Source: an uncultured Candidatus Saccharibacteria bacterium
Lineage (GTDB): Bacteria; Patescibacteriota; Doudnabacteria; UBA920
Direction of reading: 5' to 3'
Length of the DNA: 64,000 nucleotides
NCBI GenBank assembly: GCA_964483665.1
Contig: CAZACP010000002.1
Span: forward strand, 33,171-97,170
The position numbers and the translations under genes were made by a program. Shown in pieces: positions 1 to 48,209 of the stretch. The notes under the pieces were generated by a model. It made no database searches and was not told the origin of the DNA. It was given only the letters and a program-made list of their open reading frames with translations. Within the stretch, counting starts at the first letter, position 1. The number at the start of each line of letters is the position of its first letter.

Positions 1-600
<600 letters not shown>

Positions 601-606
601 GAAAAT

Positions 607-1461
607 TTGATTAATTTTCCCAACAATCTTGTGAGCAATATAACTTTTATAATTTTTACCTACAATGAAGAAAAACGTTTGCCATATGTTCTAAAAAACT
701 TTTCTAGATATGGGCAAATTTGCTTAATGGATGACGGTAGTACTGACAGGACCAGAGAGATTGCAGAAAGTTCCGGAGCCCTATATTTTAGGCGACCCGT
801 AAGCAATAGTGTTAATGTGGAAACAGTAGAAAATTTTAAATTTATAAAAACTTTTTTAAAAACAGAATGGATCTACTGGGGTTATGCAGATAACATTGCG
901 CCAAAAAGCCTTTTAGAAAAACTTACCGAGGTTTCAAAAGAGGAAAAATATAAACAAGTTTTCATTCCACTTTATACCTACTTGTGGGGCAATACTAAAA
1001 ATTACACCCTTAAAGCTTACGCCCCGTTTTTTTTTCACAAAGATTATATTGATTTTCAAAAAAATCATATCCATGGAATCGGTAAATTTTTAGGTTCTAA
1101 ATCACAGATTTTAAGGTTGCCCAACAAACCAGAATTTGCTTTAAGACATTTTAGCACTTATAATATTGAAAAATTTGTCCGAAATCATTTTAGATATAGT
1201 GACAAAGAGGCGCAAGAAAAATTTTTTCGGGGGGAAAAATTCAGCATTCTTAAGTTGCTTAGGGCTTTAGTTGCCTATGCCTGGTATTTTACCAAAGATA
1301 ATTACAAAAACGGCAAATTAGGATTTTTAATTCTACTCAATTATCTGTCCTATAGAATAATGACTTATACCAGGTTGTACGAAATTGAAAATAATATAAC
1401 TATTGAAAACATAGAGAATAATTATTCAAAAAAGAAAGCAGAGCTATTAAAGGATTTTTAA
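607..1461 (+). CDS. Glycosyltransferase family 2
   Basis: N-terminal GT-A signature IIFTYNEEKRLPYVLKNF...DDGSTDRT (DxD region). Confidence 0.65.
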   Translation: MINFPNNLVSNITFIIFTYNEEKRLPYVLKNFSRYGQICLMDDGSTDRTREIAESSGALYFRRPVSNSVNVETVENFKFIKTFLKTEWIYWGYADNIAPKSLLEKLTEVSKEEKYKQVFIPLYTYLWGNTKNYTLKAYAPFFFHKDYIDFQKNHIHGIGKFLGSKSQILRLPNKPEFALRHFSTYNIEKFVRNHFRYSDKEAQEKFFRGEKFSILKLLRALVAYAWYFTKDNYKNGKLGFLILLNYLSYRIMTYTRLYEIENNITIENIENNYSKKKAELLKDF

Positions 1462-2390
1462 TGTTAAGTAAAGTAATTGAATTTGTAAGAAATAACACGC
1501 CCCTTTGGTTACACCGGGCATTAGGCCCAATTTTAGCCAAAATCTTTTACTTTTTTCGTATTTACATACTTGGGAATAACCATACGCCAACAGTTTTGTC
1601 AATTATGGAAACTCTCAAGTTAGTAGAAAGAAATGGTCTGTCCTTTGTTCGTTTTGGTGATGGAGAGATTACTTTAATTGAAGGTAAGGATTTATTATTT
1701 CAAAAAGCCGACCCTAATTTAATTTTAAGATTAAAAAAGGTTCTAAAAGCAGATTTACCAGGATTTCTAATTTGTCTGCCTGATTTATTTGGCAAGTTAG
1801 ATGCTTATGTGGCTGAGGCCCATAAATTCGCTTTGCACCACCAATTTCATTATAGACACCAATGGTTAGAGCTGCTTTCCTTAAAACAAATTTATGGGAA
1901 TACCTTTGTAACCAGGCCTTATTTGGGTTTTAAAGATGATGAACGAAAAAAAAATAGCGCAGCTTTCAAAAAACTTTTTTCATTTTGGTATGGAAGAGAT
2001 GTGATTTTAGTAGAAGGCCTTAAGAGTCGTTTGGGTGTTGGAAATGATATGTTTAAAGAAGTAAAATCATTAAGAAGAATTTTATGTCCACCGGAAAATG
2101 CTTTTGAAAAATACACTCAAATTTTTGAAGCAGTAAGAAAAAAAAGCAAAGATCATTTGATTCTCCTATCATTGGGTCCGGCGGCTAAAGTTTTGGCCTA
2201 CGATTTATTTCTGGAAGGTTTTCGGGTTTTTGATATTGGGCATATAGATATGGAATATGAGATGTATTTAAAAAATGAACCAAAACTTACAAAGGTAAAG
2301 TACAAATATTTTAACGAAATAAATGAAAGGAATCCTGAAGATTGTAAAGACCCTGAATATTTGAGTCAAATCACAGAAAAAATTTTATGA
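1461..2390 (+). CDS. Putative GT-D/DUF1792-type glycosyltransferase
   Basis: The FVRFGDGE motif near the N-terminus is characteristic of the DUF1792 (GT-D fold) family. Its start overlaps the stop of the preceding gene. Confidence 0.45.
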   Translation: MLSKVIEFVRNNTPLWLHRALGPILAKIFYFFRIYILGNNHTPTVLSIMETLKLVERNGLSFVRFGDGEITLIEGKDLLFQKADPNLILRLKKVLKADLPGFLICLPDLFGKLDAYVAEAHKFALHHQFHYRHQWLELLSLKQIYGNTFVTRPYLGFKDDERKKNSAAFKKLFSFWYGRDVILVEGLKSRLGVGNDMFKEVKSLRRILCPPENAFEKYTQIFEAVRKKSKDHLILLSLGPAAKVLAYDLFLEGFRVFDIGHIDMEYEMYLKNEPKLTKVKYKYFNEINERNPEDCKDPEYLSQITEKIL

Positions 2391-3451
2391 AAAAAATAAG
2401 ATTAAAAATTTGCGACAAAAATTTAGGACAAAAATTTTCTTACGGAACCTTTTTTTTAAACCTTCTGAAAAAATATTATGAAGTTGAGCTTACTGAAAAA
2501 CCAGATTTTGTAATTTACAATGAATCAACTTTTGAGTATTTAAAATACGGGCAAGATCCTGTGCGACTTTTGTTTATAGGGGAGAATGTTTCTCCTGATT
2601 TTAATTTATGCGATTATGCGATCGGATTTGACTATCTTACTTTTCAGGATAGGTTTTACCGGATGCCTTTGTATTTAATTGCACAATTTTATTCAGACGC
2701 TGAAATTGAGTTGGCGGGGGGGATGGATTTCACCTTCCAAAAGCCCTTTTTAAAAGAAGAATTGGCAAAAAAAACTGGATTTTGCAGCTTTGTTTATAGT
2801 AATTATTTGGCAGGTGGCCAACGTGAAGAGATATTTTATAAATTATCTGAGTATAAGAAAGTTGATGCAGGGGGTGGCTATTTGAATAATGTGGGTGGTA
2901 AAATAAAAAATAAATTAGCCTTTGAAATGCAGCATAAATTTTCAATTGCCTTTGAGAATTCTTCCCGAAGTGGTTATACTACAGAAAAATTAGTCAATGC
3001 TTTTTCTGCAAGAACAATTCCAATTTACTGGGGTAATCCGGATGTTGGCCTTGAGTTTAATGAAAAGCGTTTTATAAATTGTCATTCTTATAAGAACTTT
3101 GGGGAAGTGGTAGCTCGCGTTAAGGAAATAGATCAAAATGACGAACTGTATTTGAAAATAATCAACGAGCCCGTGGCTGCAAGCGGTATGGAATTTAAAG
3201 TCTTAGAAGCAGGTTTAGAAAAGTTTTTGTGTCATATTTTTGACCAGTCTCCAGAACAAGCAAAACGACGAACAATTAACGCAGCCAGGGCGACAAATTT
3301 AGAACGACAAGAAAAGTTGATTGCTAAATATATGGCAAGAAATTTACTTATCAGGAAGGCTCTCGCTTTTTTTTACAAACCTTTTAAAAAAGTGGTTTTT
3401 ATGGAAAATTTGAAACAAAGAATTTTTGCGAAAAATATTTATAAAAAATAG
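2387..3451 (+). CDS. GT10-family alpha-1,3/4-fucosyltransferase-like protein
   Basis: The motif FENSSRSGYTTEKLVNAF matches the FucT signature FxxFENSxxxxYxTEK. It sits downstream of fcl. Confidence 0.6.
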   Translation: MKKIRLKICDKNLGQKFSYGTFFLNLLKKYYEVELTEKPDFVIYNESTFEYLKYGQDPVRLLFIGENVSPDFNLCDYAIGFDYLTFQDRFYRMPLYLIAQFYSDAEIELAGGMDFTFQKPFLKEELAKKTGFCSFVYSNYLAGGQREEIFYKLSEYKKVDAGGGYLNNVGGKIKNKLAFEMQHKFSIAFENSSRSGYTTEKLVNAFSARTIPIYWGNPDVGLEFNEKRFINCHSYKNFGEVVARVKEIDQNDELYLKIINEPVAASGMEFKVLEAGLEKFLCHIFDQSPEQAKRRTINAARATNLERQEKLIAKYMARNLLIRKALAFFYKPFKKVVFMENLKQRIFAKNIYKK

Positions 3452-3528
3452 AGTATTATATTTATTTTACCTAAAAACTACATTCAATTAGTCTTAAGTC
3501 TAACAAATAAATTATTCAGAGAATTTAA

Positions 3529-4152
3529 ATGGTAAATAAAACACCTAAATATTTAATTGGCAGGGCATTGGTAAAAGTAATGTGTTTAAAGGGTTTTTCG
3601 TATTCTTCTTTAAATGAAGATAACATTCTAGATTGGCTTACTGGCTATAAAGAAAAGGGGGTTTATATAGATATTGGGGCTTATAATCCTGATCATATAA
3701 ACAACACAAAGCTCTTTTATCAAAGAGGTTGGAGGGGTATAAATATAGAGCCAAATGAAGAGGGTTTTAAGAAGTTTTTGGAAAAAAGACCAGAAGATGT
3801 GAATTTAAATTGTGCTGTTGGCCTAGGGGAAGCGGATTACTATTTTGCCGAAGGTGGTAGTGGTAATACTTTTGTTAAGAATACCGCGGAACAGAGAGGA
3901 ATAGACAAAAAAATTAAAGTTAAGCTTAAACCCCTGTCAGAAATTTTTAAAGAGAACAACCTAAGCGTTGTTGATTTCATTTCAATGGATGTTGAAAATT
4001 TTGAACATGAGGTTATAAAAAGTAATGATTGGTTTAAATACAAAGCAAAAGTTTTGTGTTTGGAGGGTTCTGGTTACCCGGAGTTAAAAAAGTACGGGTA
4101 TAAGTTAGTATTTTGGGACGGTGGTAACTCCTACTTTAAGCTTGATTTATAG
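3529..4152 (+). CDS. FkbM-family methyltransferase
   Basis: IDIGAYNPDHINNTKLFYQRGWRGINIEPN resembles the FkbM SAM-binding region. Confidence 0.5.
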   Translation: MVNKTPKYLIGRALVKVMCLKGFSYSSLNEDNILDWLTGYKEKGVYIDIGAYNPDHINNTKLFYQRGWRGINIEPNEEGFKKFLEKRPEDVNLNCAVGLGEADYYFAEGGSGNTFVKNTAEQRGIDKKIKVKLKPLSEIFKENNLSVVDFISMDVENFEHEVIKSNDWFKYKAKVLCLEGSGYPELKKYGYKLVFWDGGNSYFKLDL

Positions 4153-4196
4153 TATATAGGGAGTAGTTTGGTACCTATTGACACTTTTTGACACAT

Positions 4197-4234
4197 AAAA
4201 AAACCTTTGATATGCTTAAATCAAAGGTTTTTTA
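4197..4234 (+). terminator. Rho-independent terminator
   Basis: Perfect hairpin aaacctttga/tcaaaggttt followed by a T-run. Confidence 0.6.
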
Positions 4235-4432
4235 CTCTATACTAGGAAGTCCTGAGGACGGAAGTCAGGGTAAAAGAGTGCCCACAAGTAGTCACACCCT
4301 GGCTTGAGTCCGGGGTAAATAGTATCCCTGAGATGAAATAATTAGCGTTTAATTTGATTGTAGTTGGGTTACGATCACTTGCGATCGTCACCAACAGAAA
4401 ACTCGCCCTTTAGGCGGGGAGGAGGTCATTTT

Positions 4433-4675
4433 ATGGAAATAAATCCCCACGAAATTTATACAACCCAAGAAACTCAAAAATTGCTTAAAGTAAGCAATAG
4501 TACAATTAAACGCATGCTAAAAAATGGTTTATTAAGAGCCAATAAAATTGGCAAGCAGTATCGGATTTTAGGCCATGAAATTTTACGCTTGGTTTCCCCG
4601 GAGGTTGAAAGAAAAGCAGTACAAGCCTATCAGGGAATAAAAACCAAAGCTCGAGTTAAGTTAGAAAATTGGTAA
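4433..4675 (+). CDS. Small HTH DNA-binding protein (excisionase/MerR-like HTH family)
   Basis: RBS GGAGGAGG sits 6 nt upstream of the ATG. The sequence TTQETQKLLKVSNSTIKRMLKNGLL fits a helix-turn-helix. The ORF track's longer 4364 start includes a GC-rich structured leader. Confidence 0.5.
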   Translation: MEINPHEIYTTQETQKLLKVSNSTIKRMLKNGLLRANKIGKQYRILGHEILRLVSPEVERKAVQAYQGIKTKARVKLENW

Positions 4676-4679
4676 TTTT

Positions 4680-5867
4680 ATGATTTTATATTTTGATACT
4701 TATATTATAGACCGCAGTTTAAGCAAAAAAAATCCTTTTGCAGAAAAAGATAATATTCGGGGAAAATCACCTGTATACCGAATGCCAAAAAAGATTGAAA
4801 TTGCAAAATACACATTAGCCAGCTACGCTACTTACCCATGGTCGCACGTTTTGATTAGATATGAATTAGCGGAGGGTGATTATAATGAGTTAGATGATTT
4901 TATTTACTCCCTGTTTCCAAAAGCTCAAATACTTCATACCCGAAGTGATAGTCAAATTGATTATTTAGATTCAATAAAATTGCTAGATAATGTGACTGAT
5001 GACTGGGTATTTTATTCGCCCAATAACGACCATCCCCTGTTGATTAGCCAGCCATCAGATATTGCTTTTATAAACAGTTTAATAAAAAAAGGCGATGAGT
5101 ATTCTGAAAAAAATAATTTTGTTTCGATTGCATATTCTCATTGGACTGAGTATATAAATGGGGTCAATAAAAGATTTGGCTATTTTCCAAAGGGCACACA
5201 GAAAATTGAAGACACAAGAGATTGTTTAGTTTTCGACGTACCGAAAGGTGATTATAGTTCAATCCAAATAGTGAATAAAAAACTTTTTAAGGATTGGTTT
5301 ACTTTTATGGATTTAAGCGGTCGTTTAATAATGCGAGCCGAAGATCTAGCGGCTTTACGGGACAAAAAACAAATAGAAATTGTACCCAAGAAGGAGTTAT
5401 GTTCACATTTTGATGGTTATGAGCATATGCTGGGGTATTCAAAGGAAATTTTTACCGATTTAATACCGCCTTTGTTTATACCGTTTGGATTTTTTGAAAA
5501 AAAAATAAAAATTGCCTACGGATATGATACATATCGCCCGGGTTGGACAAATATTAATCCTCTGGCGAAAAATTACAGTTTTCGCGATTTAGTCCACGGT
5601 ACGGATTTGAAATTAAACATCGAAGATATTCCTCTTTTCTGGAAATCAAGAATTTTGACCATAGATGTTAATCCAAAATTCAACCACGAAAAAGCAAAAC
5701 AATCCAAAGATCTTAAAATGCAAATTCTACTCAATCCCTGGTCACTAAAAAGCCAGGGCTGGAGTTTGAAAACCGCCAAATTTCAGGTAAAGCAACTTTT
5801 GTATCCTTACCGTAATTTTTTTGAAGCACTTGGTTTAATTCAGTTGTTAAAAAAATCTGGTAATTAA
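4680..5867 (+). CDS. Hypothetical protein (395 aa) inside the glycan locus
   Basis: Long ORF tightly coupled to its neighbours. No family recognised. Confidence 0.45.
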   Translation: MILYFDTYIIDRSLSKKNPFAEKDNIRGKSPVYRMPKKIEIAKYTLASYATYPWSHVLIRYELAEGDYNELDDFIYSLFPKAQILHTRSDSQIDYLDSIKLLDNVTDDWVFYSPNNDHPLLISQPSDIAFINSLIKKGDEYSEKNNFVSIAYSHWTEYINGVNKRFGYFPKGTQKIEDTRDCLVFDVPKGDYSSIQIVNKKLFKDWFTFMDLSGRLIMRAEDLAALRDKKQIEIVPKKELCSHFDGYEHMLGYSKEIFTDLIPPLFIPFGFFEKKIKIAYGYDTYRPGWTNINPLAKNYSFRDLVHGTDLKLNIEDIPLFWKSRILTIDVNPKFNHEKAKQSKDLKMQILLNPWSLKSQGWSLKTAKFQVKQLLYPYRNFFEALGLIQLLKKSGN

Positions 5868-5869
5868 TT

Positions 5870-7513
5870 ATGAAAAAAAGTGTTAACCATAAACAAATAT
5901 TTGCCATCATTCCTGCGGCTGGCAAGCCGAGTAATTTAATTATCCAACACTCGACCTTACCTGACACAATGTTGCCTATTAACGGCAAGCCAGTAATAGG
6001 TTATATTTTGGAGGATTTGTTAAGTAGGGGGATAAAAAATGCGGTTATTGCTTTGCATCCTGCGGATTCTCATACCCAAAAGTATGTTGAGCAAAAGTTT
6101 ACAGATAAAATGGGAATTAAGTTTATAAGAACTAATCCCGACAGGGGAGTGGGAAATTCAATTTATCTTGCCAGTAAGTTAGTCGAAAAAAATAATAGAA
6201 TTTTATTGTATTTGGGAGATACAATTTATAAAGGAAAATTAAATTTTGGTAATGATTTTTTAGTGTTTTCCAACCGATATGAAAATCCTGAAAAATGGTG
6301 TTTTATTGAAAAACACCACAACAGAAATTTTCTTTTTATCAATAAACCCGCAGAATATAAGTTAGGAGGCAAGGTTTTGTGCGGTGTTTATTATTTTAAA
6401 GATTATAAGAATTTTATTTTAGCAACTAACCGGGCAGTAAACAAAAATAAAAAAGTTGAAATTAGCCATATTTTAGAAGCTTATCAAAAATTTCATAAAT
6501 TTGATTTAATAAGTGCTAATCGTTGGTATGATTGTGGAAATATTGAAAATTACTATCAAGCCAAAGTTGATTTTTTACGGACAAGAAGTTTTAATCGGCT
6601 TAGTTATAATCCGCAATTCGGAATTATCACAAAAACTGGGACAAATATTCAAAAAATTAACCAGGAAATAAACTGGTATTTAAATACTCCCGACCCGCTA
6701 AAAATATTCTCACCAAGGTTATTTGACTACAAAATTGGGAAAAAAATGTCTTATTACAGTATTGAATATTACGGGTATCCGACCTTAGCTGACATTCATA
6801 TGTTTGCGTACATTAACCAATCTGTTTGGCAGTCAATTATTAACCGCTTGCTCGAAATCACAGAGCTTTTTAAAGGTTATCCAAATCATTTACCTAGAAG
6901 TTATTTTTCCGATATGTACGAAAAAAAAGTAGTCTTGCGATTAAATGATTTACAAAAACATTTTTATTGGAAAAAGGTTTTAAATAGGTCGACAATAAGC
7001 ATAAATGGGGTTGAACACAAAAATATAAGCTATTTTTTAAACAAGTTTGAAGAAATGACCGGCTTATTGTATGAAAAAAAAGATATGAGTTTTATTCATG
7101 GTGACTTTTGTATGGGAAACATATTGTATGATGTAAATAGCAAACTGCTCAAATTTTTAGACCCTCGCGGTTATTTTGGTAAAATGTCAATTTACGGAGA
7201 TATTAAATATGATATAGCAAAATTACGTCACAGTTTTTGTAGTTTTTACGATTTTATTGTTGCTGATTTATTTAAAATCATAGAGCCAGCGGAAGGTCAA
7301 TATTTTTACAATGTATATATTGATGATTATCACAGATTAATTGCTAATAAATTTGACGAGGTGCTTATAAAAAAAGGTTATAATTTAAAATTAATAAAAT
7401 ATGTGGAAGCTTTATTGTTTCTTTCGATGGCTTCTTTGCATTCAAATAGCTTGAGCCGTCAAAAAGCTATGTATGTTACGGGAATTAGACTTTTAAATGA
7501 GACATTTAAATAA
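5870..7513 (+). CDS. Bifunctional sugar-1-phosphate nucleotidyltransferase / APH-family anomeric sugar kinase (MurU-AmgK- or LicC-LicA-like fusion)
   Basis: The N-terminus IIPAAGKPSNL...LPINGKPVIGYILEDL shows an NTP-transferase fold. The C-terminus IHGDFCMGNILYD...LDPRG is a phosphotransferase-family (APH/choline kinase) catalytic motif. Confidence 0.6.
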   Translation: MKKSVNHKQIFAIIPAAGKPSNLIIQHSTLPDTMLPINGKPVIGYILEDLLSRGIKNAVIALHPADSHTQKYVEQKFTDKMGIKFIRTNPDRGVGNSIYLASKLVEKNNRILLYLGDTIYKGKLNFGNDFLVFSNRYENPEKWCFIEKHHNRNFLFINKPAEYKLGGKVLCGVYYFKDYKNFILATNRAVNKNKKVEISHILEAYQKFHKFDLISANRWYDCGNIENYYQAKVDFLRTRSFNRLSYNPQFGIITKTGTNIQKINQEINWYLNTPDPLKIFSPRLFDYKIGKKMSYYSIEYYGYPTLADIHMFAYINQSVWQSIINRLLEITELFKGYPNHLPRSYFSDMYEKKVVLRLNDLQKHFYWKKVLNRSTISINGVEHKNISYFLNKFEEMTGLLYEKKDMSFIHGDFCMGNILYDVNSKLLKFLDPRGYFGKMSIYGDIKYDIAKLRHSFCSFYDFIVADLFKIIEPAEGQYFYNVYIDDYHRLIANKFDEVLIKKGYNLKLIKYVEALLFLSMASLHSNSLSRQKAMYVTGIRLLNETFK

Positions 7514-7517
7514 TTTT

Positions 7518-8588
7518 ATGAGAATAATGTTAGATTTAGATGGGGTGATTTGCGAAATCCGAAAAGAAGGCCAAGATTATGATCAGGTCAGGGTAAATGA
7601 GGGAGCAATTGAAAAAATTAAGGAGTTAAAAGCAGCAGGCCATTATATTATTTTGCAGACCGCAAGACATATGAAGACCTGTAAGGGAGATCAGGGTCAA
7701 GTCGTGGCAAAAATTGGCAAAAAAACTTTGGATTGGTTGGAAAGGAATACTATTTTATATGATGAAATTTATTTTGGAAAACCGCACGCGGAAGTATATA
7801 TAGACGATTTGGCGTACGAGTTTAGAGGATGGGACAATATTTTACCTGATAATTTTGATTCAAATAAAGTCAACATACTAATTCCGATGGCGGGCGCTGG
7901 CTTGCGTTTTAAGCAAAAAGGTTTTGTCGATCCGAAGCCATTAATAAAGACAAAAGGTAAAACATTGGTAGAGTGGGCAGTTAGGTCCTTCCATTTTTTA
8001 AACAAGATAAAAACTTACCGTCTAATTTTTATTGTTTTAGATGAACATGTTAAAAAATTTCGGATCGATAAGCAGCTAAAAGAATTATTTGGAAATGAAA
8101 CTGTTGTTATAACGCAATTTGGCTTGCTTTCGGGTCAGGCCAAATCAAGCTATTTGGCAAAAGAATACATTGATAACTTTAACAAATTATTTATATTTAA
8201 CTGTGATACTTATTCGGAAAGTGCGATTTGGGAATTGATTGAAAAAGAAGACCCGGACGGAATTTTAGAAGTTTTTGAATCAAGCGAGCCTCGGTATAGT
8301 TTTGTAAAGTTAGATGAATTTGGTTACGTTACTCAGACTGCTGAAAAAGTGACAATTTCAAATTTAGCTTCAACCGGTATGTATTATTTTAAAAGGGGTA
8401 CAGATTTTGTTCGAGCAGCCGAGGCTCTTTTTATGCGACAAGAAACCCAAAATAACGAGTTTTATATAATACCTTGTTATAACGAAATGTTAAAATCTGG
8501 TAAAAAAATCAGGGCTGTGAAAGCTCTAAAAAATTATATACTTGGAACCCCCGAGGAATTAAAGGCTTTCGAAAAAAATAAGGAATAA
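7518..8588 (+). CDS. HAD-superfamily hydrolase fused to a nucleotidyltransferase domain
   Basis: The N-terminus MLDLDGVICE is HAD motif I (DxDG). The C-terminus ILIPMAGAGLRFKQKGFVDPKPL is a GT-A-like NTP-transferase glycine loop. The first non-overlapping ATG was chosen (the track starts at 7497). Confidence 0.55.
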   Translation: MRIMLDLDGVICEIRKEGQDYDQVRVNEGAIEKIKELKAAGHYIILQTARHMKTCKGDQGQVVAKIGKKTLDWLERNTILYDEIYFGKPHAEVYIDDLAYEFRGWDNILPDNFDSNKVNILIPMAGAGLRFKQKGFVDPKPLIKTKGKTLVEWAVRSFHFLNKIKTYRLIFIVLDEHVKKFRIDKQLKELFGNETVVITQFGLLSGQAKSSYLAKEYIDNFNKLFIFNCDTYSESAIWELIEKEDPDGILEVFESSEPRYSFVKLDEFGYVTQTAEKVTISNLASTGMYYFKRGTDFVRAAEALFMRQETQNNEFYIIPCYNEMLKSGKKIRAVKALKNYILGTPEELKAFEKNKE

Positions 8589-8591
8589 TGA

Positions 8592-10151
8592 ATGGAAGAA
8601 ACTTCTTTTTCTTACAAAACCCTAAAGAATTCAAGCTATTTGTTTGCCGGCTTTTTGTTGCCGATGGTTTTTACTATATTCGTTACCAGAGCGTTAGCTC
8701 TCAAATTAGGGAGTGTTGATTTTGGAATTTATTTGTTAGTAAACGCAATAAGTTCATTTGTGGGGTTTGTTGATTTGGGTTTAAGCAGCGCCATAACCAA
8801 ATACGCTTCGGAATATTTAGCTAAGGGTGATATTAAAGCTTTACAAAACTTGTTGGGTTCAGCTAGAAGCTTATTTTTAGCCCTGGGGTTTTTGGGTGTT
8901 TTGGTTTTTGTAGTAATTGGTAAATGGTTCTTGCCTTTATTTCATGTCACGGCCGAAAGTCAGACACATATTTTGATTGTCTTTTTACTTGCTGGAGCGG
9001 CTTTTTTGTTAAATACTTTTGGCTTGGTTTACGGGTCAATTTTAACAGCTTTGCAAAGATTTGATATTTCTACCAAACTTTCTATGACTAGTTTGATAGT
9101 TACAAGTTTGGGCTCGATTTGGCTTTTACAGAATAGTTATCAATTAAAGGCTGTAATGGCCCTTAATGTTTGTGTGATTTTATTTACAATCGTTTTTACA
9201 ATGTATTATTCCAGAAAACTTTTGCCTGATTTGCGATTGAAATTTAGTTTCAACAGGACAGAAATGAAAAAAGCCTACAGTTTTGGTTTTCAGACTTTTA
9301 TTTCAAATTTAGCAGCAAGTTGTTTGCAATATTTGGATCGCTTAATAATCCCATTTTTTTTAGGACCGGCAGTTTTGCCTTTTTATAGTGTGCCGGGTAA
9401 TATTGCGATTAAAATTGTTGGAGTGACCAACAGCCTCTCGGGTATGTTTTTTCCCATGGCTAGCAGTTTGTCAGGTTCGGGAGAAATGGAAAAATTAAAA
9501 CAAATTTACTTAAGAGCTTTTCGAAATTTAAGTGTAGTAGCCGCAGGAACTACAATAGCCATAGTATTATTTGCGCAAAAAATATTAATGTTTTGGCTAG
9601 GTTCTGAGTATGCGGCAAATGGCAGTAAAATCCTGGTAATTTTGGCAATTACTTATTATTTTATTGGACTTTATATACCTTTGCAGAGTATTTTGTTAGG
9701 TTTAGGAAAAATGAAATTTTTAATTCGACAATCTATTTTAATGTCAGCTATAAATCTTACACTGCTGTTAATACTGGTTCCGAAAGCTGGTATTCTGGGA
9801 GCGGCTTGGGCATACCTAATTGCGGTTTTGCCAATGGCTTATGCTTTTTATTGGACCGAGCGTAATATTTTTGGTTTAAAAAATCAGTCATCATTTTACT
9901 TAAAACTCTATCTAAAAATATTTTTAGTAGCTTTTGTAGATGTGTTAATAATATATTTTTTGATAGAGCCCATAACTACCAGTCTATCGTTGTTAGTCAT
10001 CAGTGGGCCATTTTCGGTCGTGTTGTATTTTGTTTTGTATTTTGCTTTTGGTTTTGTAGAAACAGATGATATTTTACTATTTAAAAGTTTTTTTTATAAA
10101 ATTTTTAGAATTAAGAAACCATTATATGAATCAGGCGCCCCAGATAAATAA
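8592..10151 (+). CDS. wzx: Polysaccharide biosynthesis protein / oligosaccharide flippase (Wzx, MOP superfamily)
   Basis: About 14 predicted TM segments across 519 aa. It sits in a glycan locus. Confidence 0.7.
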   Translation: MEETSFSYKTLKNSSYLFAGFLLPMVFTIFVTRALALKLGSVDFGIYLLVNAISSFVGFVDLGLSSAITKYASEYLAKGDIKALQNLLGSARSLFLALGFLGVLVFVVIGKWFLPLFHVTAESQTHILIVFLLAGAAFLLNTFGLVYGSILTALQRFDISTKLSMTSLIVTSLGSIWLLQNSYQLKAVMALNVCVILFTIVFTMYYSRKLLPDLRLKFSFNRTEMKKAYSFGFQTFISNLAASCLQYLDRLIIPFFLGPAVLPFYSVPGNIAIKIVGVTNSLSGMFFPMASSLSGSGEMEKLKQIYLRAFRNLSVVAAGTTIAIVLFAQKILMFWLGSEYAANGSKILVILAITYYFIGLYIPLQSILLGLGKMKFLIRQSILMSAINLTLLLILVPKAGILGAAWAYLIAVLPMAYAFYWTERNIFGLKNQSSFYLKLYLKIFLVAFVDVLIIYFLIEPITTSLSLLVISGPFSVVLYFVLYFAFGFVETDDILLFKSFFYKIFRIKKPLYESGAPDK

Positions 10152-11040
10152 TAACTCAGTTTCACAACACAAGGCTATAATTACAGCAGCATCGGGTAAA
10201 TATTTTCCATCTTTAATAAATTTATTAGGATCAATAAAACAAAATTACCCCGATCATCCTAAAATATTTGTTTATGATTTGGGTATGCCAGCTATTTTTG
10301 TCTCCGAGCTTAAAAGCCTAAAGGACGTGGAAGTAATAGCCATGCCCATTTTTTGCAAGTTCTGGCGTAGTTGTTATACTTGGAAAACTTATATATTTAG
10401 CCACCCTTTGGCAGATTTAAATTTTTATCTGGATGCTGGCTGTCAAGTGTTAAGACCGCTGGACCGAATATTTGATACGCTTGAAAAAGAAGATTTTTTT
10501 GCCATAGGCCAAGGGGTTTTACTGGAAAAAATTGTACCAAAAGAATATAAAGCAATATTTGAAATTTCAAATGAATTCGATGACTGTGAAGTAATCCATG
10601 CCGGGGAATTTGGCTTCAAAAATAAAGGGAAAATTTCAAATATTTTGAACCAGACTTTTGACTGTGCTTTAAGCGGGTTAGCTTTGGGTTTTTCACCTAA
10701 AGATATTTGGAGAAATAAAGGTTATAATAAAAGTCAATTTGTTAGAAACTGTGAAATTTTTAGGCATGATTTAACATTATTAAATATTCTAATAAGGAAA
10801 CATTTCGGAAGGAATGTAAAAATTCATTCAGTAGAACAATTTGCTGGCGGCCGTAATGCTCATCAAGAACAATTTATATGGCATCTAAGGATGGACTTTA
10901 AAAATTTGAGCTATGTAAATTTAAGGTTTTTACATACAGATTTTAGCTGCGTGATTTTATTAAATCGTCTTGTAATAAGTTTGATGATTTTGATAAAGAA
11001 TTTTAAAACTTTTTTCAGAGAATTTAAAATTGGGCTTTGA
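10126..11040 (+). CDS. Hypothetical protein, possibly a GT-A-like nucleotide-sugar transferase
   Basis: Motifs KIFVYDLG and YLDAGCQVL are present. The internal ATG at 10126 was preferred over the track start 10066, which lies deep in the flippase gene. The call is weak. Confidence 0.35.
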   Translation: MNQAPQINNNSVSQHKAIITAASGKYFPSLINLLGSIKQNYPDHPKIFVYDLGMPAIFVSELKSLKDVEVIAMPIFCKFWRSCYTWKTYIFSHPLADLNFYLDAGCQVLRPLDRIFDTLEKEDFFAIGQGVLLEKIVPKEYKAIFEISNEFDDCEVIHAGEFGFKNKGKISNILNQTFDCALSGLALGFSPKDIWRNKGYNKSQFVRNCEIFRHDLTLLNILIRKHFGRNVKIHSVEQFAGGRNAHQEQFIWHLRMDFKNLSYVNLRFLHTDFSCVILLNRLVISLMILIKNFKTFFREFKIGL

Positions 11041-11096
11041 CCTTAAATCTTAATTATTGTATAGTTTTATTGTAGAAAAATAGTAATTTTATATAT

Positions 11097-11891
11097 ATGA
11101 AAGTAATAATACTCTGCGGCGGGGAAGGAACCCGTATGAAGGAAGAAACCGAGTTTAAGCCCAAACCTTTGGTGGAAGTGGGCGGTAAGCCCATTTTGTG
11201 GCATATTATGAAAATTTACGCCCATTATGGTTTTAATGAGTTTATTTTGGCTTTGGGCTATAAAGGCAATAGTATAAAAGAATATTTTATGAACTGGAGG
11301 ACTTTTGTCAATGATTTTACTTTAGATACCAGCGAACACTCGTTAAGTTTTCATAACAAAAATCATGAAAATTTTAAAATAACTTTTGTGGATACAGGAC
11401 AAAAAAGTTTGACCGGTGAACGTCTGAGGAGGCTTGAAAAATATATTCCCGATCAGGAATTTATGCTAACTTATGGCGATGGGGTTGCAGATATTGATCT
11501 TGTTAAGCTTTTGGATTTCCATAAACGGCAAAATACCATTGGAACTATTACTGGTGTTAGACCTTTGACGAAGCTTGGAATAGTCCATCAAGACAAACAG
11601 ACAAAAAAAGTAATAGGTTTTAGTCAAAATTTAGTCGGGGATTTCGTTGACAAAGAGAATTACCATGATTTTTTAATTAACGGGGGTTTTATGGTTTTCA
11701 AAAAAGATGTTTTTAAGGATTTAAAACCAAATAGCATGATTGAAGAGTTATTCATTCCTCTGGCTAAACGGGGTCAATTGTCTTTATTTGATCATCAAGG
11801 AAAGTGGAAAGCCATGGACACCTATAAGGAAGTTGAGGAGATGAACGAGTATTGGGAAAAAAATCCTTTTTGGAAAATTTGGGAAAAATAA
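11097..11891 (+). CDS. rfbF: Glucose-1-phosphate cytidylyltransferase
   Basis: MKVIILCGGEGTRMKEETEFKPKPLVEVGGKPILWHIMKIY is an RfbF/DdhA hallmark. Confidence 0.85.
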   Translation: MKVIILCGGEGTRMKEETEFKPKPLVEVGGKPILWHIMKIYAHYGFNEFILALGYKGNSIKEYFMNWRTFVNDFTLDTSEHSLSFHNKNHENFKITFVDTGQKSLTGERLRRLEKYIPDQEFMLTYGDGVADIDLVKLLDFHKRQNTIGTITGVRPLTKLGIVHQDKQTKKVIGFSQNLVGDFVDKENYHDFLINGGFMVFKKDVFKDLKPNSMIEELFIPLAKRGQLSLFDHQGKWKAMDTYKEVEEMNEYWEKNPFWKIWEK

Positions 11892-11893
11892 TT

Positions 11894-12859
11894 ATGGAAA
11901 TAGCATTACAAAATAAGGCTTGCTTGGTAACCGGCGGCACTGGACTTGTAGGTTCCCATGTGGTTGAGAGGCTTTTAGGTTTAAACGCCCAGGTTTTTGT
12001 TGTTGATTTGCAGGTATTATCCAAAAGCTATTTTGATTTAAAAAAATTTTCAGACAAATGCCCGGTATTCATTCAGGATGTAAGGGATGCTGTCAAAATT
12101 AAAGAAATTGTAGATCAAAACAGGATTGAATATATATTTCATTTGGCGGCCCAACCTATTGTAGGAGAGGCATTTTTGCACCCCATGCTGACTCTTGATA
12201 CCAATATTATGGGCACGGTTTCAGTTTTGGAGGCCGCTAAGGAAAATAAAAATATTAAGGCTGTGGTTGTGGCTTCCTCAGATAAAGCATACGGAAAACA
12301 TTCATATAATGTTACGGAAGACCAGCCTTTAAGCGGAGATCATCCATATGATGTTTCAAAGTCAGCGGCTGATTTAATTAGCATGGCTTATTTTCATACT
12401 TATAATCTACCGGTGACGGTTAGCCGATTCGGCAATATTTTTGGGCCGGGTGATTTAAATTTTAGCCGGATTGTTCCCGGGGTTATGGACAGTATTATAA
12501 ATAATAAAAATTTGGAGATACGTAGCGATGGTACTTTTGTACGGGATTATGTTTATGTAAAAGATGTGGCTGATGGTTATGTGGTTTTAGCCGAGCAGAT
12601 TGGCAAAACAGCCGGCCAGGCTTTTAATTTTTCCAGCGGTCATAATTTGTCTGTCCTAAAAATAATTGAAGACATCGAGAAGGTTATAGGAAAAAAGTTA
12701 AAATATAGAGTTGTGAATAGCCAGCAAAATGAAATACCCAGACAAAGTTTGAACTATGAGAAAGTCAGAAAAACACTGGACTGGAAGCCTAAATTCACTT
12801 TTGAACAAGGTATTAAAGAAACTTTTGAGTGGTATAAAAGTTTTTTTAAGCAGGCTTAA
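11894..12859 (+). CDS. rfbG: NAD-dependent NDP-sugar dehydratase (likely CDP-glucose 4,6-dehydratase)
   Basis: The Rossmann motif VTGGTGLVGSHV and the catalytic YDVSK are present. It sits immediately downstream of rfbF. Confidence 0.55.
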   Translation: MEIALQNKACLVTGGTGLVGSHVVERLLGLNAQVFVVDLQVLSKSYFDLKKFSDKCPVFIQDVRDAVKIKEIVDQNRIEYIFHLAAQPIVGEAFLHPMLTLDTNIMGTVSVLEAAKENKNIKAVVVASSDKAYGKHSYNVTEDQPLSGDHPYDVSKSAADLISMAYFHTYNLPVTVSRFGNIFGPGDLNFSRIVPGVMDSIINNKNLEIRSDGTFVRDYVYVKDVADGYVVLAEQIGKTAGQAFNFSSGHNLSVLKIIEDIEKVIGKKLKYRVVNSQQNEIPRQSLNYEKVRKTLDWKPKFTFEQGIKETFEWYKSFFKQA

Positions 12860-12907
12860 AGAAACTTTTATATTAAAAACTGAATTAGAATATTAATAAA
12901 ATATTTT

Positions 12908-14086
12908 ATGAAATATCGTCTAACTTCCGCTGCGAACAATTTGGAGGGCCAGCCTATGTTTAAAGTTCTTGCCAAGGTTAAGGATTTAGAGAGACTTGGA
13001 GAGGATATCGTTCATTTTGAAATAGGTGATCCCGATTTTAACACCCCTGAGAATATTACAAATGCGGCTATCGATTCCCTTAAGCGAGGAGAAACGCATT
13101 ACCAAAGTTCTTACGGAATGACTGAATTTAGAGAATTAGTCAGGGATATAACTTTAAAATCAAGAGGTTTTAAGCCTGATTTAGACCAAGTTTTAATTAC
13201 ACCATCAGCAAATATAATTATTTATTATGCGGTGGCTTGTTTGGTGGAGCCGGGTGATGAGGTTATTGTGCCAGACCCGGGTTTTCCTACTTATAACGCG
13301 GTTTTAAAGTTTTGTGGAGTTAAGGCTGTAGGAATTCCTCTTTTAGAAAAAAATCATTTTCGAATGAGTCCTCAAGATGTTGAAAAAGCTATAACCGAAA
13401 AAACCCGAATGATTATTATGAATTCTCCACAGAATCCCACAGGCTCGGTTATGACTCCTGATGAAATAAATAAAATGGCTGAAATTGCTGAAAAGTACGA
13501 GATTTACCTTTATACTGATGAAATATATTCTCGTATGATTTTTGAGCCTTCTGACAGTTTTTGTTCCCCGGCAAAAAGGGATGGTTGTAAAAAGAGAACG
13601 ATTTTAGCAAATGGATTTTCTAAAGCTTTTGCAATGACAGGCTGGCGTTTGGGGGTATGCATTGCACCATCTGATGTGATTGAGAAAATGGCTTTACTTC
13701 TTCAGACTACTTCTTCTTGCACTTCGCCGTTTATTCAAAGAGCCGGTATGGAAGCAATTTCAGGTAGTCAAAAAAGTGTTGAAGCTATGGTAGCAGAATA
13801 CAAAGCCAGAAGGGATTTGCTAGTAGCAGGACTTAATAATATCCCTGGAATTACTTGTTTAACTCCTGGCGGAGCATTTTATGTTGTACCCAATATTACT
13901 AAAACCGGCATGACCTCAGAAGAATTTGCAAAATTTGCTTTGGAAAAGGCAAAAGTTGCACTTTTGCCTTTAACAAACTTTGGACCAAGCGGAGAGGGCT
14001 ACGTACGTTTGTGTTATGCAACTTCCAGAGAACGCATTCTGGAAGGGTTAAAAAGATTAAGCGCCGCACTTGAGGCGAGAAAATAA
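12908..14086 (+). CDS. Class I/II PLP-dependent aminotransferase (AspAT-like)
   Basis: The NSPQNPTGSVMT motif and the Lys region ANGFSKAFAMTGWRLGV are present. Confidence 0.7.
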   Translation: MKYRLTSAANNLEGQPMFKVLAKVKDLERLGEDIVHFEIGDPDFNTPENITNAAIDSLKRGETHYQSSYGMTEFRELVRDITLKSRGFKPDLDQVLITPSANIIIYYAVACLVEPGDEVIVPDPGFPTYNAVLKFCGVKAVGIPLLEKNHFRMSPQDVEKAITEKTRMIIMNSPQNPTGSVMTPDEINKMAEIAEKYEIYLYTDEIYSRMIFEPSDSFCSPAKRDGCKKRTILANGFSKAFAMTGWRLGVCIAPSDVIEKMALLLQTTSSCTSPFIQRAGMEAISGSQKSVEAMVAEYKARRDLLVAGLNNIPGITCLTPGGAFYVVPNITKTGMTSEEFAKFALEKAKVALLPLTNFGPSGEGYVRLCYATSRERILEGLKRLSAALEARK

Positions 14087-14092
14087 TATATT

Positions 14093-15889
14093 ATGCGAGT
14101 CGCTGATTATATTACTAAGTTTATTGAAAATTTAGGAGTTCAGGATATTTTTACACTTACTGGTGGTGGCGCGATGTTTTTAAATGATGCTGCAGCGCAA
14201 AATCAGAAAATTAGGAGTATTTTTAATCACCATGAACAATCCAGTGCAATGGCCGCTTTTGCTTATAGTAAATACACCGGGAATTGGGGAGTCGCTTATG
14301 TAACGACTGGTTGCGGAGGAACTAATGCCGTAACCGGGCTGCTTGATGCCTGGCAAGATAATATTCCTGTAATGATAGTTTCAGGCCAAGTTAAAAGAGC
14401 GGATACAATTTGGGCAATGCAGCAGCCACTTAGGCAGTATGGTGTTCAGGAAGCGGATATTATCCCTATAGTTCAGTCTTTGTGTAAATATGCAGTAATG
14501 GTTACTGAACCTGAGAAAATTCTTTATCATTTACAAAAGGCAGTCTATTTAGCAACTCATGGAAGGCCCGGGCCTGTTTGGCTTGACGTACCTTCGGATG
14601 TTCAAGGTGCAGTTGTTGATGAAAATAATTTGGTCAAATTTGATCCAAAAGATTTGCAAGTTGATTACAAAAACCAGTGCTCTCAAAATGATCTAGCAGG
14701 TTTAGAAAGATTATTGGGGGCGGCTAAACGGCCTGTTATTATTGCCGGACACGGTATCAGGCTCGCGCATGCTATCTCAACTTTTAAAACGTTTATTGAA
14801 ACTTATAATATTCCTTTTGTCGGAACTTATTTGGCGACGGATTTTGTTCCGGGAGACCACCCTTTATTTATTGGCCGTACCGGCCTTAAGGGAGATAGGG
14901 CAGGTAATTTTGCCATGCAGAACTCTGACCTTATTTTAAGTATTGGTAGTCGTTTGGGTGTTACGGTTATTGGCTATAACCCCAAAGAATTCGCTCGGGC
15001 CGCTAAAATTGTAGTTGTTGATATAGACCCAAATGAACATAAGAAAAAAACAATTCATATTGACCAGTTTATAAATGCTGACGCCAAATGGTTTTTGGAA
15101 AATTTCAAACCGCAGGGACTTGGCGATTTTAAAGAATGGAGAGAAAAGTGCAAAAATTGGAAGGATAATTATCCGGTTTGTCTGCCGGAATACAGGCAAA
15201 TCAAAAAAGGAATAAACTTATATCATTTTGTCGATGAGTTATGTAAGGCTTTGCCGGAAGATGGTGTAATTGTAGCAGACGCTGGTTCGGCGATTTATGC
15301 ACCAGCCCAAGGTTTTAAAGCCAAAACCAACCAGAGACTAATTCTTTCGGGTGCTCAAGCGGAAATGGGTTTTACTTTGCCTGGTTGTATTGGTGTTTGT
15401 GCTGCTAAAAAAGACGGGGAAGTGGTTGGTATAACCGGCGACGGTTCTTTTCAAACTAATTTACAAGAACTACAACTTTTAGTCGAGTATAAATTCCCAA
15501 TTAAGCTTTTTGTATGGAACAATGACGGCTATTTGTCGATTCGGGCTACTCAAACCAAAATTTTTGAGGGCCGTTTATATGGCACAGACAAAAGTAACGG
15601 AGTGTCTTTGCCTGACACCAAAAAAATTACAGAAGCCTATGGCTTGCCTTACGTAAAAATCGAAGGCAGTGAAAATTTAAATGAAAAAATTTCCGCTGTA
15701 CTTAATATGAAAGGACCTGTGGTATGTGAAGTTATGTGCATACGGGATCAGGAAATTGTACCAACAGTTTCTTCAAAAAAGTTACCCGACGGTAGAATGG
15801 TTTCTAAACCTTTGGAAGATTTATACCCGTTCTTAGATAGGGAAGTCTTTAAAAATGAAATGATAGTTGAGCCTTTGTCGGAAGAATAA
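14093..15889 (+). CDS. Thiamine-diphosphate-dependent enzyme, acetolactate-synthase-large-subunit-like (YerE-like candidate)
   Basis: The N-terminal Pyr domain TGGGAMFLNDAAAQ and the C-terminal TPP motif GITGDGSFQTNLQEL...NNDGY are present. At 598 aa it has the full three-domain ALS architecture. Confidence 0.7.
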   Translation: MRVADYITKFIENLGVQDIFTLTGGGAMFLNDAAAQNQKIRSIFNHHEQSSAMAAFAYSKYTGNWGVAYVTTGCGGTNAVTGLLDAWQDNIPVMIVSGQVKRADTIWAMQQPLRQYGVQEADIIPIVQSLCKYAVMVTEPEKILYHLQKAVYLATHGRPGPVWLDVPSDVQGAVVDENNLVKFDPKDLQVDYKNQCSQNDLAGLERLLGAAKRPVIIAGHGIRLAHAISTFKTFIETYNIPFVGTYLATDFVPGDHPLFIGRTGLKGDRAGNFAMQNSDLILSIGSRLGVTVIGYNPKEFARAAKIVVVDIDPNEHKKKTIHIDQFINADAKWFLENFKPQGLGDFKEWREKCKNWKDNYPVCLPEYRQIKKGINLYHFVDELCKALPEDGVIVADAGSAIYAPAQGFKAKTNQRLILSGAQAEMGFTLPGCIGVCAAKKDGEVVGITGDGSFQTNLQELQLLVEYKFPIKLFVWNNDGYLSIRATQTKIFEGRLYGTDKSNGVSLPDTKKITEAYGLPYVKIEGSENLNEKISAVLNMKGPVVCEVMCIRDQEIVPTVSSKKLPDGRMVSKPLEDLYPFLDREVFKNEMIVEPLSEE

Positions 15890-15894
15890 TTTTT

Positions 15895-16791: not shown

Positions 16792-16794
16792 GTA

Positions 16795-23708: not shown

Positions 23709-23859
23709 CTTTCAATGGTGGAAATAGCTCTTTCTTTTTTGTTTATTTTCTGGTAATCTAAACCACAGATACGCAAATTATCATAAATCACACAGATTTA
23801 AAAAATCAAACAAATATCTGCGTTATCTGCTTTTATCTGTGTATCTGTGGACTAAAAAT

Positions 23860-25140: not shown

Positions 25141-25144
25141 AATT

Positions 25145-45828: not shown

Positions 45829-46185
45829 ATGGAAAAGGAACAAGACATAGAAAATAGCAAAGCGCAAATGCGCAAGGGGATTTTAGAGTTTTGTATATTA
45901 CTCATTATTTCCAAAGAAGAGGTTTACCCTTCCGATATTTTAAAGGAGCTTAAAGAATTTGACTTAATTGTGGTGGAAGGTACGCTGTATCCGCTTTTAA
46001 GTAGGCTTAAGGACTATGGGCTTCTTGAATATCGGTGGGAAGAAAGCAAATCAGGTCCCCCTAGAAAATACTACAAGCTTACTTTGGAGGGTAAGAAAGT
46101 TTTGAGCCAAATGGAAAAGAACTGGGCGGAACTTAGTAAAAGTATTCAAGCATTAATAAAAAAACACGGAGGGAATGAGAAGTAA
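45829..46185 (+). CDS. PadR-family transcriptional regulator
   Basis: ILEFCILLIISKEEVYPSDILKEL...EGTLYPLLSRLKDYGLLEYRWEE...PRKYYKLT matches the family. Confidence 0.8.
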   Translation: MEKEQDIENSKAQMRKGILEFCILLIISKEEVYPSDILKELKEFDLIVVEGTLYPLLSRLKDYGLLEYRWEESKSGPPRKYYKLTLEGKKVLSQMEKNWAELSKSIQALIKKHGGNEK

Positions 46186-46301
46186 GAATGGGATAAAATA
46201 AATTTACCATTCCGAAAGCAGTGAGGAATCCCTTTTATAAGTTTTAAGGGATCCTTCGCTCCGCTCTGGATGGTAACATAACATCAATTAATTAAAATAA
46301 T

Positions 46302-48152: not shown

Positions 48153-48165
48153 AATGAATACAGCG
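48039..48165. repeat. Direct repeat copy 1 (3' end of the PspC-domain gene plus its terminator hairpin)
   Basis: About 90% identical to 48705-48829. Confidence 0.75.
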
Positions 48166-48209
48166 TGCTCGTAACTGGTACGAGCGCGCTGTAGAAAGCG
48201 TTTTGGGAG

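Follow-up and report, generated by a model that had tools for sequence, protein, structure and literature searches.

Several bacterial pathways combine a kinase, a phosphatase of the HAD superfamily and a nucleotidyltransferase to activate a sugar or a related compound. In the HddA/GmhB/HddC route to GDP-D-glycero-α-D-manno-heptose (named in PMC7685785), an anomeric kinase acting on a sugar phosphate is followed by a cap-less HAD phosphatase and then by a nucleotidyltransferase of the PF00483 type. In acarbose synthesis, AcbU, AcbJ and AcbR convert valienol-7-phosphate into the 1,7-diphosphate, the 1-phosphate and GDP-valienol, dephosphorylation preceding nucleotidylation (PMC9200736); a kinase–HAD–nucleotidyltransferase sequence that replaces a mutase is experimentally demonstrated there. 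The MupP/AmgK/MurU system and NahK exemplify an APH-fold anomeric kinase alongside a PF00483 nucleotidyltransferase and a HAD phosphatase, and LicA/LicC pair a nucleotidyltransferase-fold domain with a kinase of the APH/choline-kinase fold, sometimes fused (LicCA). Here we analyze two adjacent genes with domains of these classes, gene 1 (positions 5870-7513, + strand, 547 residues) and gene 2 (7497-8588, + strand, 363 residues), in a stretch of 64,000 nucleotides from an uncultured Candidatus Saccharibacteria bacterium (contig CAZACP010000002.1), hereafter the window.

Gene 1 joins a nucleotidyltransferase-fold domain (NT1) to an APH-fold kinase, and gene 2 a cap-less HAD phosphatase to a second nucleotidyltransferase domain (NT2). 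HddA, by contrast with the window kinase, is a GHMP kinase. The Lic pathway has no phosphatase and its nucleotidyltransferase is catalytic, whereas the one fused to the kinase here is degenerate. The acarbose enzymes, which we liken to the window genes by pathway logic and not by sequence, differ in that they act on a cyclitol, belong to an actinomycete secondary-metabolite cluster and have no pseudo-nucleotidyltransferase domain.

A sequence-only reading of the window had described gene 1 as an NTP-transferase fold fused to a kinase of the APH rather than the GHMP type, and gene 2 as a HAD phosphatase fused to a nucleotidyltransferase; both descriptions agree with the family and structure matches given below. 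It was also right in outline in proposing a route to nucleotide-linked glycan building blocks for the adjacent flippase and transferases. Of its kinase, phosphatase and two-nucleotidyltransferase cassette, the kinase, the HAD enzyme and NT2 stand and the second nucleotidyltransferase falls, as NT1 lacks the catalytic Arg and Lys. Its candidate products were phosphocholine or aminoethyl-phosphate head groups and recycled amino sugars; absent from them was fructosylation, to which the genes of the kfoE region of Escherichia coli K4 point, the sole relatives with an experimental handle. Our best overall explanation, to which we give an even chance, is that the module makes a nucleotide-activated sugar, most likely fructofuranose, for a Wzx-dependent glycan locus.

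The bacterial activation of fructofuranose and other ketofuranoses for capsule and lipopolysaccharide (LPS) is not established, and the cassette is a concrete candidate for it. In the literature searched, the biosynthesis of UDP-, GDP- or CDP-fructose by bacteria is the subject of no paper, and on these compounds and fructose-2-phosphate it offered metabolomics lists and a Nudix substrate table and nothing else; searches on WavE with fructose in Vibrio cholerae, on PDB 9IQW and 4EVW, on the capsule biosynthesis phosphatase and on a kinase/phosphatase/nucleotidyltransferase set in Patescibacteria gave nothing useful in that literature. Nucleotide-activated Ribf and Xulf are listed as unknown in a review of E. 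coli O antigens (PMC7685785). Pathway logic of this kind has precedents, but for the enzyme families and their probable product no description turned up in the literature searched, and KfoE, their single relative with a name, appears to be mis-assigned.

Domains of the two genes

The C-terminal domain of gene 1 (residues 236-547; 6575-7513, + strand), of about 310 residues, is faintly APH-like (NCBIfam APH(3') E 4e-4; Pfam APH E 0.015), and APH is matched by all 16 gene 1 homologs tested, at best with E 5e-8. A sequence-profile search of this domain alone against the PDB returned marginal matches only (best E 0.011), so that structure prediction was needed. The fold is nearest to those of small-molecule kinases, among which are MTR kinase, maltokinase and NahK, all of them anomeric kinases, and we propose an anomeric kinase of the APH/eukaryotic-like (ELK) fold. 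The catalytic residues K255, E266, H410-G-D412, N417 and D431 are invariant in 33 homologs, which rules out a pseudokinase. With a bilobal fold, the β3 Lys, the αC Glu, an HxDxxxxN loop and the Mg-binding Asp, the domain has the features expected of an active kinase of the APH or eukaryotic-like type. Gene 1 has no GHMP kinase match in Pfam or NCBIfam; given this and the APH fold, the fucokinase/GDP-fucose pyrophosphorylase Fkp was rejected as a model. The phosphocholine option finds little echo here, Choline_kinase (PF01633) being matched by two of the 16 homologs, with E at least 0.034.

NT1, the N-terminal domain of gene 1 (residues 1-235; 5870-6574, + strand), matches PF00483 (E 1.7e-12, residues 13-234) and RmlA/GalU structures in the PDB. 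Two alignments, by phmmer against RmlA and by hhalign against the NT2 family, agree in placing N22 at the catalytic Arg (GxGTR) and D32 at the catalytic Lys (PK(P)). Neither column holds a K or R in the 33 homologs or in a set of 20 NT1-bearing sequences, E. coli clade included. The sugar-phosphate/metal side is kept, with D117 (GDT) and D221 (WxDxG). NT1 is probably a non-catalytic module. Paralogs of this kind are known from the GMPPA/GMPPB, GalF/GalU and eIF2Bγ/ε systems, where the fold is kept, the catalytic residues are lost and each protein has a regulatory association with a catalytic paralog; the database matches of NT1 include 7d72, GalF and eIF2B, from which it differs in being fused to a kinase. 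By analogy with GMPPA or GalF, its role is most likely that of a regulatory or ligand-sensing, scaffolding or heteromerisation domain, and it may dock onto NT2 or sense the product.

The N-terminal domain of gene 2 (residues 1-118; 7497-7850, + strand) contains a cap-less HAD region of about 110 residues, which matches TIGR01689 (E 2.6e-17) and PDB 1xpj (E 4e-11) over residues 9-107. Its 62.9 bits against TIGR01689, the EcbF/BcbF capsule biosynthesis phosphatase model, compare with a curated cutoff of 162 and with 193.4 bits for the HAD protein of the K4 locus, so that it is a relative of this family and not a member by the NCBI cutoff. Motifs I-IV (D13, D15, T55, K95, D103-D104) are invariant or nearly so in 23 homologs, which places the domain in the HAD superfamily. 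The C-terminal domain (7851-8588, + strand) holds NT2 at residues 127-358 and matches PDB 4evw, a V. cholerae structural-genomics protein (E 1.4e-26), and PF00483 (E 1.3e-5). It carries the canonical loop PMAGAGLRF...DPKPL, with R137 and K147 nearly invariant, and its residues are those expected of a catalytic sugar-1-phosphate nucleotidyltransferase (PF00483). Only this one of the two nucleotidyltransferases looks catalytic.

All 22 aligned homologs of gene 2 open with MRI.IDLDG, for which reason the true start is probably the ATG at 7518 (MRIMLDLDG), 4 nt past the gene 1 stop codon (7511-7513) and without overlap. Misassembly is ruled out: an identical gene 2 with the same neighbors occurs in five Joint Genome Institute (JGI) contigs, gene 1 is found at 99% identity in a separate Logan assembly, and these independent assemblies keep the arrangement. 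Neither of the two outcomes that could have undone the sequence-only reading, a degenerate pseudokinase and a misassembled gene pair, therefore holds.

Relatives of the cassette and the E. coli K4 locus

Relatives of gene 1 were sought in one genome per GTDB species, where 509 stretches encode one. They span the Candidate Phyla Radiation (CPR), DPANN and other archaea, Bacteroidota, Chloroflexota, Melainabacteria, Acidobacteriota, Gemmatimonadota and Proteobacteria. The best 80 of the 509 loci were scored with our own domain hidden Markov models (HMMs), built solely from the window's relatives. The neighbor of the kinase gene is a fused HAD-NT2 in 10 loci (CPR plus one Micrarchaeia), separate adjacent HAD and NT2 genes in 50, the HAD there being a gene of about 120 residues, NT2 only in 12, HAD only in four and neither in three; the remaining locus has no intact kinase ORF. 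NT2 thus adjoins the kinase gene in 72 loci and HAD in about 64, a frequency that speaks against phosphocholine, the Lic pathway needing no phosphatase. NT1 is present on the kinase in all 79 loci with an intact kinase ORF. The triad of kinase, HAD and NT2 has no conserved companion among isomerases (SIS isomerases included), synthases or dehydrogenases, from which we expect its substrate to be a common metabolite.

Searches for homologs brought up hundreds of full-length relatives of each of the two genes, time and again on contigs of equal length, and an exhaustive profile search gave 1,836 cluster representatives at E <= 1e-30, mostly of 520-590 residues with the kinase starting from about residue 230. 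The fusion and the gene pairing that had caught the eye in the sequence alone are kept in relatives: the pair occurs together in Kaiserbacteria, and in a Methanosarcinales and an Acidobacteriota metagenome-assembled genome gene 2 is split into a 120-residue HAD gene and a nucleotidyltransferase gene of about 240 residues. Rosetta-stone fusions link NT1, kinase and NT2 in one chain (P0499 and P0542) or NT2, NT1 and kinase (P0481). Among the variants, P0465 has a different HAD-like N-terminus (DFDQT motif) in place of NT1, P0469 a TIR-like extension after the kinase, and P0518 a RibB-like N-terminus that may be a gene-call fusion. P0083 and P0091 show Trp at every place where all other sequences have a conserved Gly (for instance DPRWYFW), and the gene at 9001-10617 in locus L007 'does not translate to query'; these observations fit UGA=Gly recoding in Gracilibacteria/Absconditabacteria, read with the wrong genetic code.

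A tblastn search against plasmids brought full-length gene 1 relatives of about 22-27% identity in cultured bacteria: one on a Citrobacter plasmid in an O-antigen-like locus and one on a plasmid of E. coli ST131 in a kps capsule locus. On a Legionella plasmid, a kinase-only relative (35% identity, 54% coverage) is followed by HAD, NT2 and two WavE genes. This 321-residue kinase without NT1 (Legionella sainthelensi, L091 8052-12207) is immediately preceded by a Tn3 transposase. Either it lacks NT1 naturally or the transposon has cut it short; we did not use it as evidence that NT1 is dispensable. When E. coli cassette DNA was compared with 5,426 complete E. coli genomes, 124 held relatives. The triad lies in the O20/O137 O-antigen cluster (L094 8854-11566), in the O78 O-antigen cluster beside a WavE gene (L096 8001-10728), and in three kps capsule loci: one shared by 40 genomes, one in strain SCU-115 and the one on the ST131 plasmid.

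The SCU-115 locus (L098) encodes a 686-residue GT2 protein that matches the K4 chondroitin polymerase (PDB 2z86) with 1449 bits, and by this match is the K4 locus. Its order is epimerase, a 535-residue protein, polymerase, a 477-residue protein, HAD (126 residues), a 522-residue protein, a 243-residue protein, UDP-glucose dehydrogenase and a GT2, corresponding to kfoA-G plus two small ORFs. The 522-residue protein, 24% identical to gene 1, is recognized by the HMMs of the window family for both the kinase (E 5.6e-60, HMM positions 3-307) and NT1 (E 4e-17), and its neighbors by those for HAD (E 3e-24) and NT2 (E 1e-43). Since kfoA is the epimerase, kfoC the 2z86 polymerase and kfoF the dehydrogenase, the four ORFs that separate kfoC from kfoF include kfoD and kfoE, in that order; by this gene order kfoE would necessarily be one of the three cassette genes, most plausibly the 522-residue protein. 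A cluster look-up of the K4 proteins found no 'KfoE' label among the members listed, so that gene order is the ground for the assignment. When kfoE is deleted, the chondroitin carries no fructose, and the product was named a fructosyltransferase for that reason (PMC7925653, PMC8858990, PMC10609508, PMC3673904). Where a kinase-fold protein has a phosphatase and a nucleotidyltransferase as neighbors, donor synthesis is the simpler explanation of the phenotype, a blocked donor having the same effect.

The cassettes of K4, O78, O20/O137 and the two other kps loci resemble that of the window by full-length homology of all four domains, by neighborhood and by a degenerate NT1. They differ in having separate HAD and NT2 genes, in the order HAD-kinase-NT2 as against kinase-HAD/NT2 in the window, and in the accompanying transferases. 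In gene 1, the E. coli/Citrobacter/Vibrio clade is 35-44% identical within itself and the window's environmental clade 30-58%. Of the 44 residues that do not vary in the window's clade, 31 are likewise constant in six E. coli/Citrobacter sequences, at an overall identity of only about 24%, and both clades have the kinase motifs HGDxCxSN, IDPRG and YDxAKLxHS. The shared invariants outside the ATP site are R239-x-F-N, K353, R357, Y447-D-x-A-K-x-x-H-S, Y460, H524 and Q531; the basic ones (R239, K353, R357, K451, H454, H524) would fit an anionic sugar-phosphate substrate. We regard this sharing as good evidence for the same reaction across the clades and moderate evidence for the same substrate. 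Among the partner proteins, those of V. cholerae are close to the E. coli ones: 4evw shows 45-55% identity with the NT2 proteins (49% with that of K4) and 1xpj 51-63% with the HAD proteins.

Three further sources of relatives bear on fructose. The kps locus of 40 genomes (L097) occurs in a strain of type O15:H18 ST69 and includes a galactosyltransferase-related gene alongside genes for a TagF-like protein and an acyltransferase. It is possibly that of K52, presumably a fructose-containing, O-acylated galactose-phosphate polymer. K52 is the dominant type of CC69 (PMC13171598). The kps locus of the ST131 plasmid (L093) carries a Stealth hexose-1-phosphate transferase, and K11 has been reported on plasmids. 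This locus is possibly that of K11, presumably a fructose-containing glucose-phosphate polymer. The LPS core of V. cholerae contains fructose.

The RefSeq/PGAP annotation names NT2 a 'glycosyltransferase family 2 protein' in the K4 (L098 13835-14566), O20 (L094 10811-11566) and K52-like (L097 13186-13932) loci. These proteins are 49-55% identical to the NDP-sugar pyrophosphorylase 4evw, and the naming looks like a systematic mis-annotation. DUF7796-like proteins, weakly related to each other (BLAST E 1e-4 to 1e-70), stand beside the cassette in the K4 (L098 10415-11848, KfoD), K52-like (L097 10659-13148), plasmid-borne (L093 6915-8603) and Citrobacter (L092 14827-16434) loci, and are candidates for the real fructosyltransferase in Enterobacteriaceae. 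In the window, the 395-residue protein encoded just upstream of gene 1 (4680-5867, + strand) matches no family in Pfam or NCBIfam. Its structure is predicted with confidence as a GT-A fold, and it is one of about 250 members of a CPR/DPANN family encoded beside the cassette, probably a new glycosyltransferase family. Its HMM showed no similarity to WavE, KfoB, KfoD, KfoG or other cassette-linked proteins, so that the transferases of different lineages appear unrelated.

Proposed pathway and competing explanations

That the kinase, HAD and NT2 together make a nucleoside diphosphate (NDP)-sugar is, in our view, quite probable; that the kinase acts ahead of the phosphatase we favor slightly. In the scheme that we infer from folds and gene content, the APH-fold kinase of gene 1 would phosphorylate the anomeric hydroxyl of a sugar phosphate, giving a sugar bisphosphate; the cap-less HAD of gene 2 would then take off the distal phosphate; NT2 would join the glycosyl phosphate to a nucleoside triphosphate, yielding the NDP-sugar; and the 395-residue GT-A-fold protein would transfer the sugar to a unit that Wzx flips. 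In the fructose version, fructose-6-phosphate would pass through fructose-2,6-bisphosphate and fructose-2-phosphate to NDP-Fruf. Fructofuranose is favored because the K4 triad contains kfoE, whose deletion abolishes capsule fructosylation; for the window itself, fructose falls somewhat short of an even chance.

Several points weigh against this scheme. Fructose-2,6-bisphosphate is not known as an established bacterial metabolite. NT2 is without the usual second metal-binding Asp ahead of GTPEEL. The 12 loci without a nearby HAD suggest that the phosphatase may not be obligatory, or is encoded elsewhere. Between the two clades, gene 1 is 22-29% identical and the substrate could differ; similarly, the window NT2 and HAD are about 32-34% identical to their V. 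cholerae counterparts (4evw 32% to gene 2). The literature calls KfoE a fructosyltransferase, not a kinase, the support cited being the deletion phenotype. Finally, O78 and O20/O137 carry the cassette, yet the review of E. coli O antigens reports no fructose: 'Fruf' does not occur in it, with D-Ribf and D-Xulf as the sole pentoses named (PMC7685785). According to the same review, O20 has a structure at odds with its galF-gnd cluster. In the O78 and O20/O137 structures, an acid-labile residue may have escaped notice.

The distance between the clades leaves room for a different sugar in the window's clade, made by the same kinase/HAD/nucleotidyltransferase chemistry, with fructose confined to the gamma-proteobacterial clade. 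Another ketofuranose (xylulose), a pentofuranose (ribose), or a hexose or heptose anomer without a supplying mutase would be candidates. We consider this unlikely, though it is the strongest competitor. The 31 shared invariants include probable substrate-pocket residues, which would be unusual after a change of substrate; the varied transferases are expected if one donor serves different acceptors; and neither clade has an extra conserved isomerase or epimerase.

A second and less probable explanation keeps the enzymes and changes their order, the HAD releasing a free sugar that the kinase then phosphorylates at the anomeric position before NT2 acts, with no bisphosphate. This is the logic of MurNAc recycling in Pseudomonas, where the same three enzyme classes act in that order (PMC5371407). 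AcbU accepts free valienol at about 20% of the rate (PMC9200736). The known APH-fold anomeric kinases (MTR kinase, NahK, maltokinase) take non-phosphorylated sugars, and the 12 loci lacking a nearby HAD would be easier to explain if the free sugar could be obtained otherwise. Cap-less HADs such as GmhB, on the other hand, act on bisphosphates. In CPR the HAD is fused to NT2 and not to the kinase, which fits consecutive action of HAD and NT2; many conserved basic residues of the kinase lie away from the ATP site; and a free cytoplasmic sugar would invite futile cycling.

NT folds are related to GT-A, and NT1 might itself be a glycosyltransferase, making KfoE-type proteins bifunctional kinase/fructosyltransferases, as the literature name implies. 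This we hold to be improbable. NT1 is highly conserved though its acceptors would have to differ (chondroitin, an O78 mannan-type unit, CPR glycans), and dedicated transferase candidates accompany the cassette in every lineage. P0465 has a HAD-like N-terminus where NT1 would stand, the Legionella kinase lacks NT1 altogether, albeit next to a transposon, and the KfoE deletion phenotype is equally expected from blocked donor synthesis. Most improbable of all are a phosphocholine or phosphoethanolamine head group of the LicA/LicC kind and amino-sugar recycling of the AmgK/MurU kind: the LicC-like domain, NT1, is without catalytic residues while the catalytic NT2 is of the 4evw sugar-phosphate type, the MurU score is 16 bits where the cutoff is 250, the conserved HAD fused to a nucleotidyltransferase is required neither for choline activation nor for a pure AmgK/MurU step, and the context is always an O-antigen, capsule or glycan locus, with loss of fructose as the K4 phenotype.

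The heptose pathway was also rejected. HddC scores 32 bits against a cutoff of 300, the kinase is not of the GHMP type and no GmhA is linked; in a Woesearchaeota locus (L008) a full GmhA/HddA/GmhB/HddC set lies beside the cassette. The wrong kinase fold and this coexistence show that the cassette is not a heptose pathway.

The kinase-first route to activated fructofuranose can be stated more broadly, and then only tentatively. The cassette would be the missing route to NDP-D-fructofuranose, with fructose-2,6-bisphosphate as a bacterial intermediate, and its users would range from E. coli K4/K52/K11 and V. cholerae to CPR/DPANN; 'KfoE' would be a mis-assigned kinase and NT1 a product sensor or scaffold; and O78, O20/O137 and many glycans of uncultured lineages would bear acid-labile fructose that has been missed. 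If this is true, kfoE, which is routinely deleted in industrial chondroitin strains, would be re-assigned, and overlooked acid-labile sugars would be predicted on clinically important O and K antigens (O78, K52-like and K11-like loci), standard acid-hydrolysis workflows having missed the fructose. Genome-reduced CPR and DPANN would keep a dedicated donor pathway for a surface sugar. The cassette would also add a further case of a kinase and a phosphatase in place of a mutase, here with an APH-fold kinase carrying a dead nucleotidyltransferase domain.

The glycan locus around the cassette

The two genes are part of a tight block of four: the ORF for the 395-residue protein ends (5867) 2 nt upstream of the gene 1 start, and wzx starts 3 nt past the end of gene 2. 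The product of wzx (8592-10151, + strand) is a Wzx/MOP-family flippase (Polysacc_synt E 8.6e-17; Polysacc_synt_3 E 1.6e-15), a 39%-identical homolog of which comes after the cassette in locus L014. The next gene encodes a 324-residue protein (10066-11040, + strand; JGI call of 304 residues from 10126) with a weak DUF1647-like match below cutoff (PF07801, E 1.8e-4). Homologs of 46-51% identity lie about 2 kb 3' of the cassette in three loci (L012, L015, L022), and the protein is a possible further transferase of the same module, its membership being tentative. A scan of 4100-11200 for promoters and terminators found no excess over shuffled controls.

The block sits in a glycan locus of about 34 kb that also holds a GT10 fucosyltransferase, an FkbM methyltransferase, genes of a CDP-glucose pathway, a thiamine pyrophosphate (TPP) enzyme, aminotransferases, several GT2s, an acyltransferase and a Bac_transf initiating transferase, with type IV pilus genes downstream. 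The genome is low-GC, one-strand-coded and CPR-like, and the nearest homologs that bear a name are those of Kaiserbacteria, Magasanikbacteria and Paceibacteria. GC content is 31-35% over positions 1-12000, cassette included, against 41-46% at 46000-56000, which may mark horizontally acquired glycan genes. Directly 5' of the four-gene block, a small HTH_17 (excisionase/MerR-type) gene at 4364-4675 (JGI call of 80 residues from 4434) could be a local regulator or the remnant of a mobile-element junction.

A second sugar pathway is encoded at 11097-17682 and 23839-27357. The first segment has a glucose-1-phosphate cytidylyltransferase, a CDP-glucose 4,6-dehydratase-like short-chain dehydrogenase/reductase (SDR) and a class I/II (aspartate-type) aminotransferase; the two together also hold a 598-residue TPP-dependent enzyme, three further SDRs, a C-methyltransferase, a GFO/IDH/MocA oxidoreductase and a DegT aminotransferase. 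The set looks like a route to a branched-chain or aminated CDP-sugar. Between the two segments, at 18700-22527, a 1275-residue protein has a GT2 domain at its N-terminus and a GtrA-like transmembrane domain, together with about 900 more residues that match no family.

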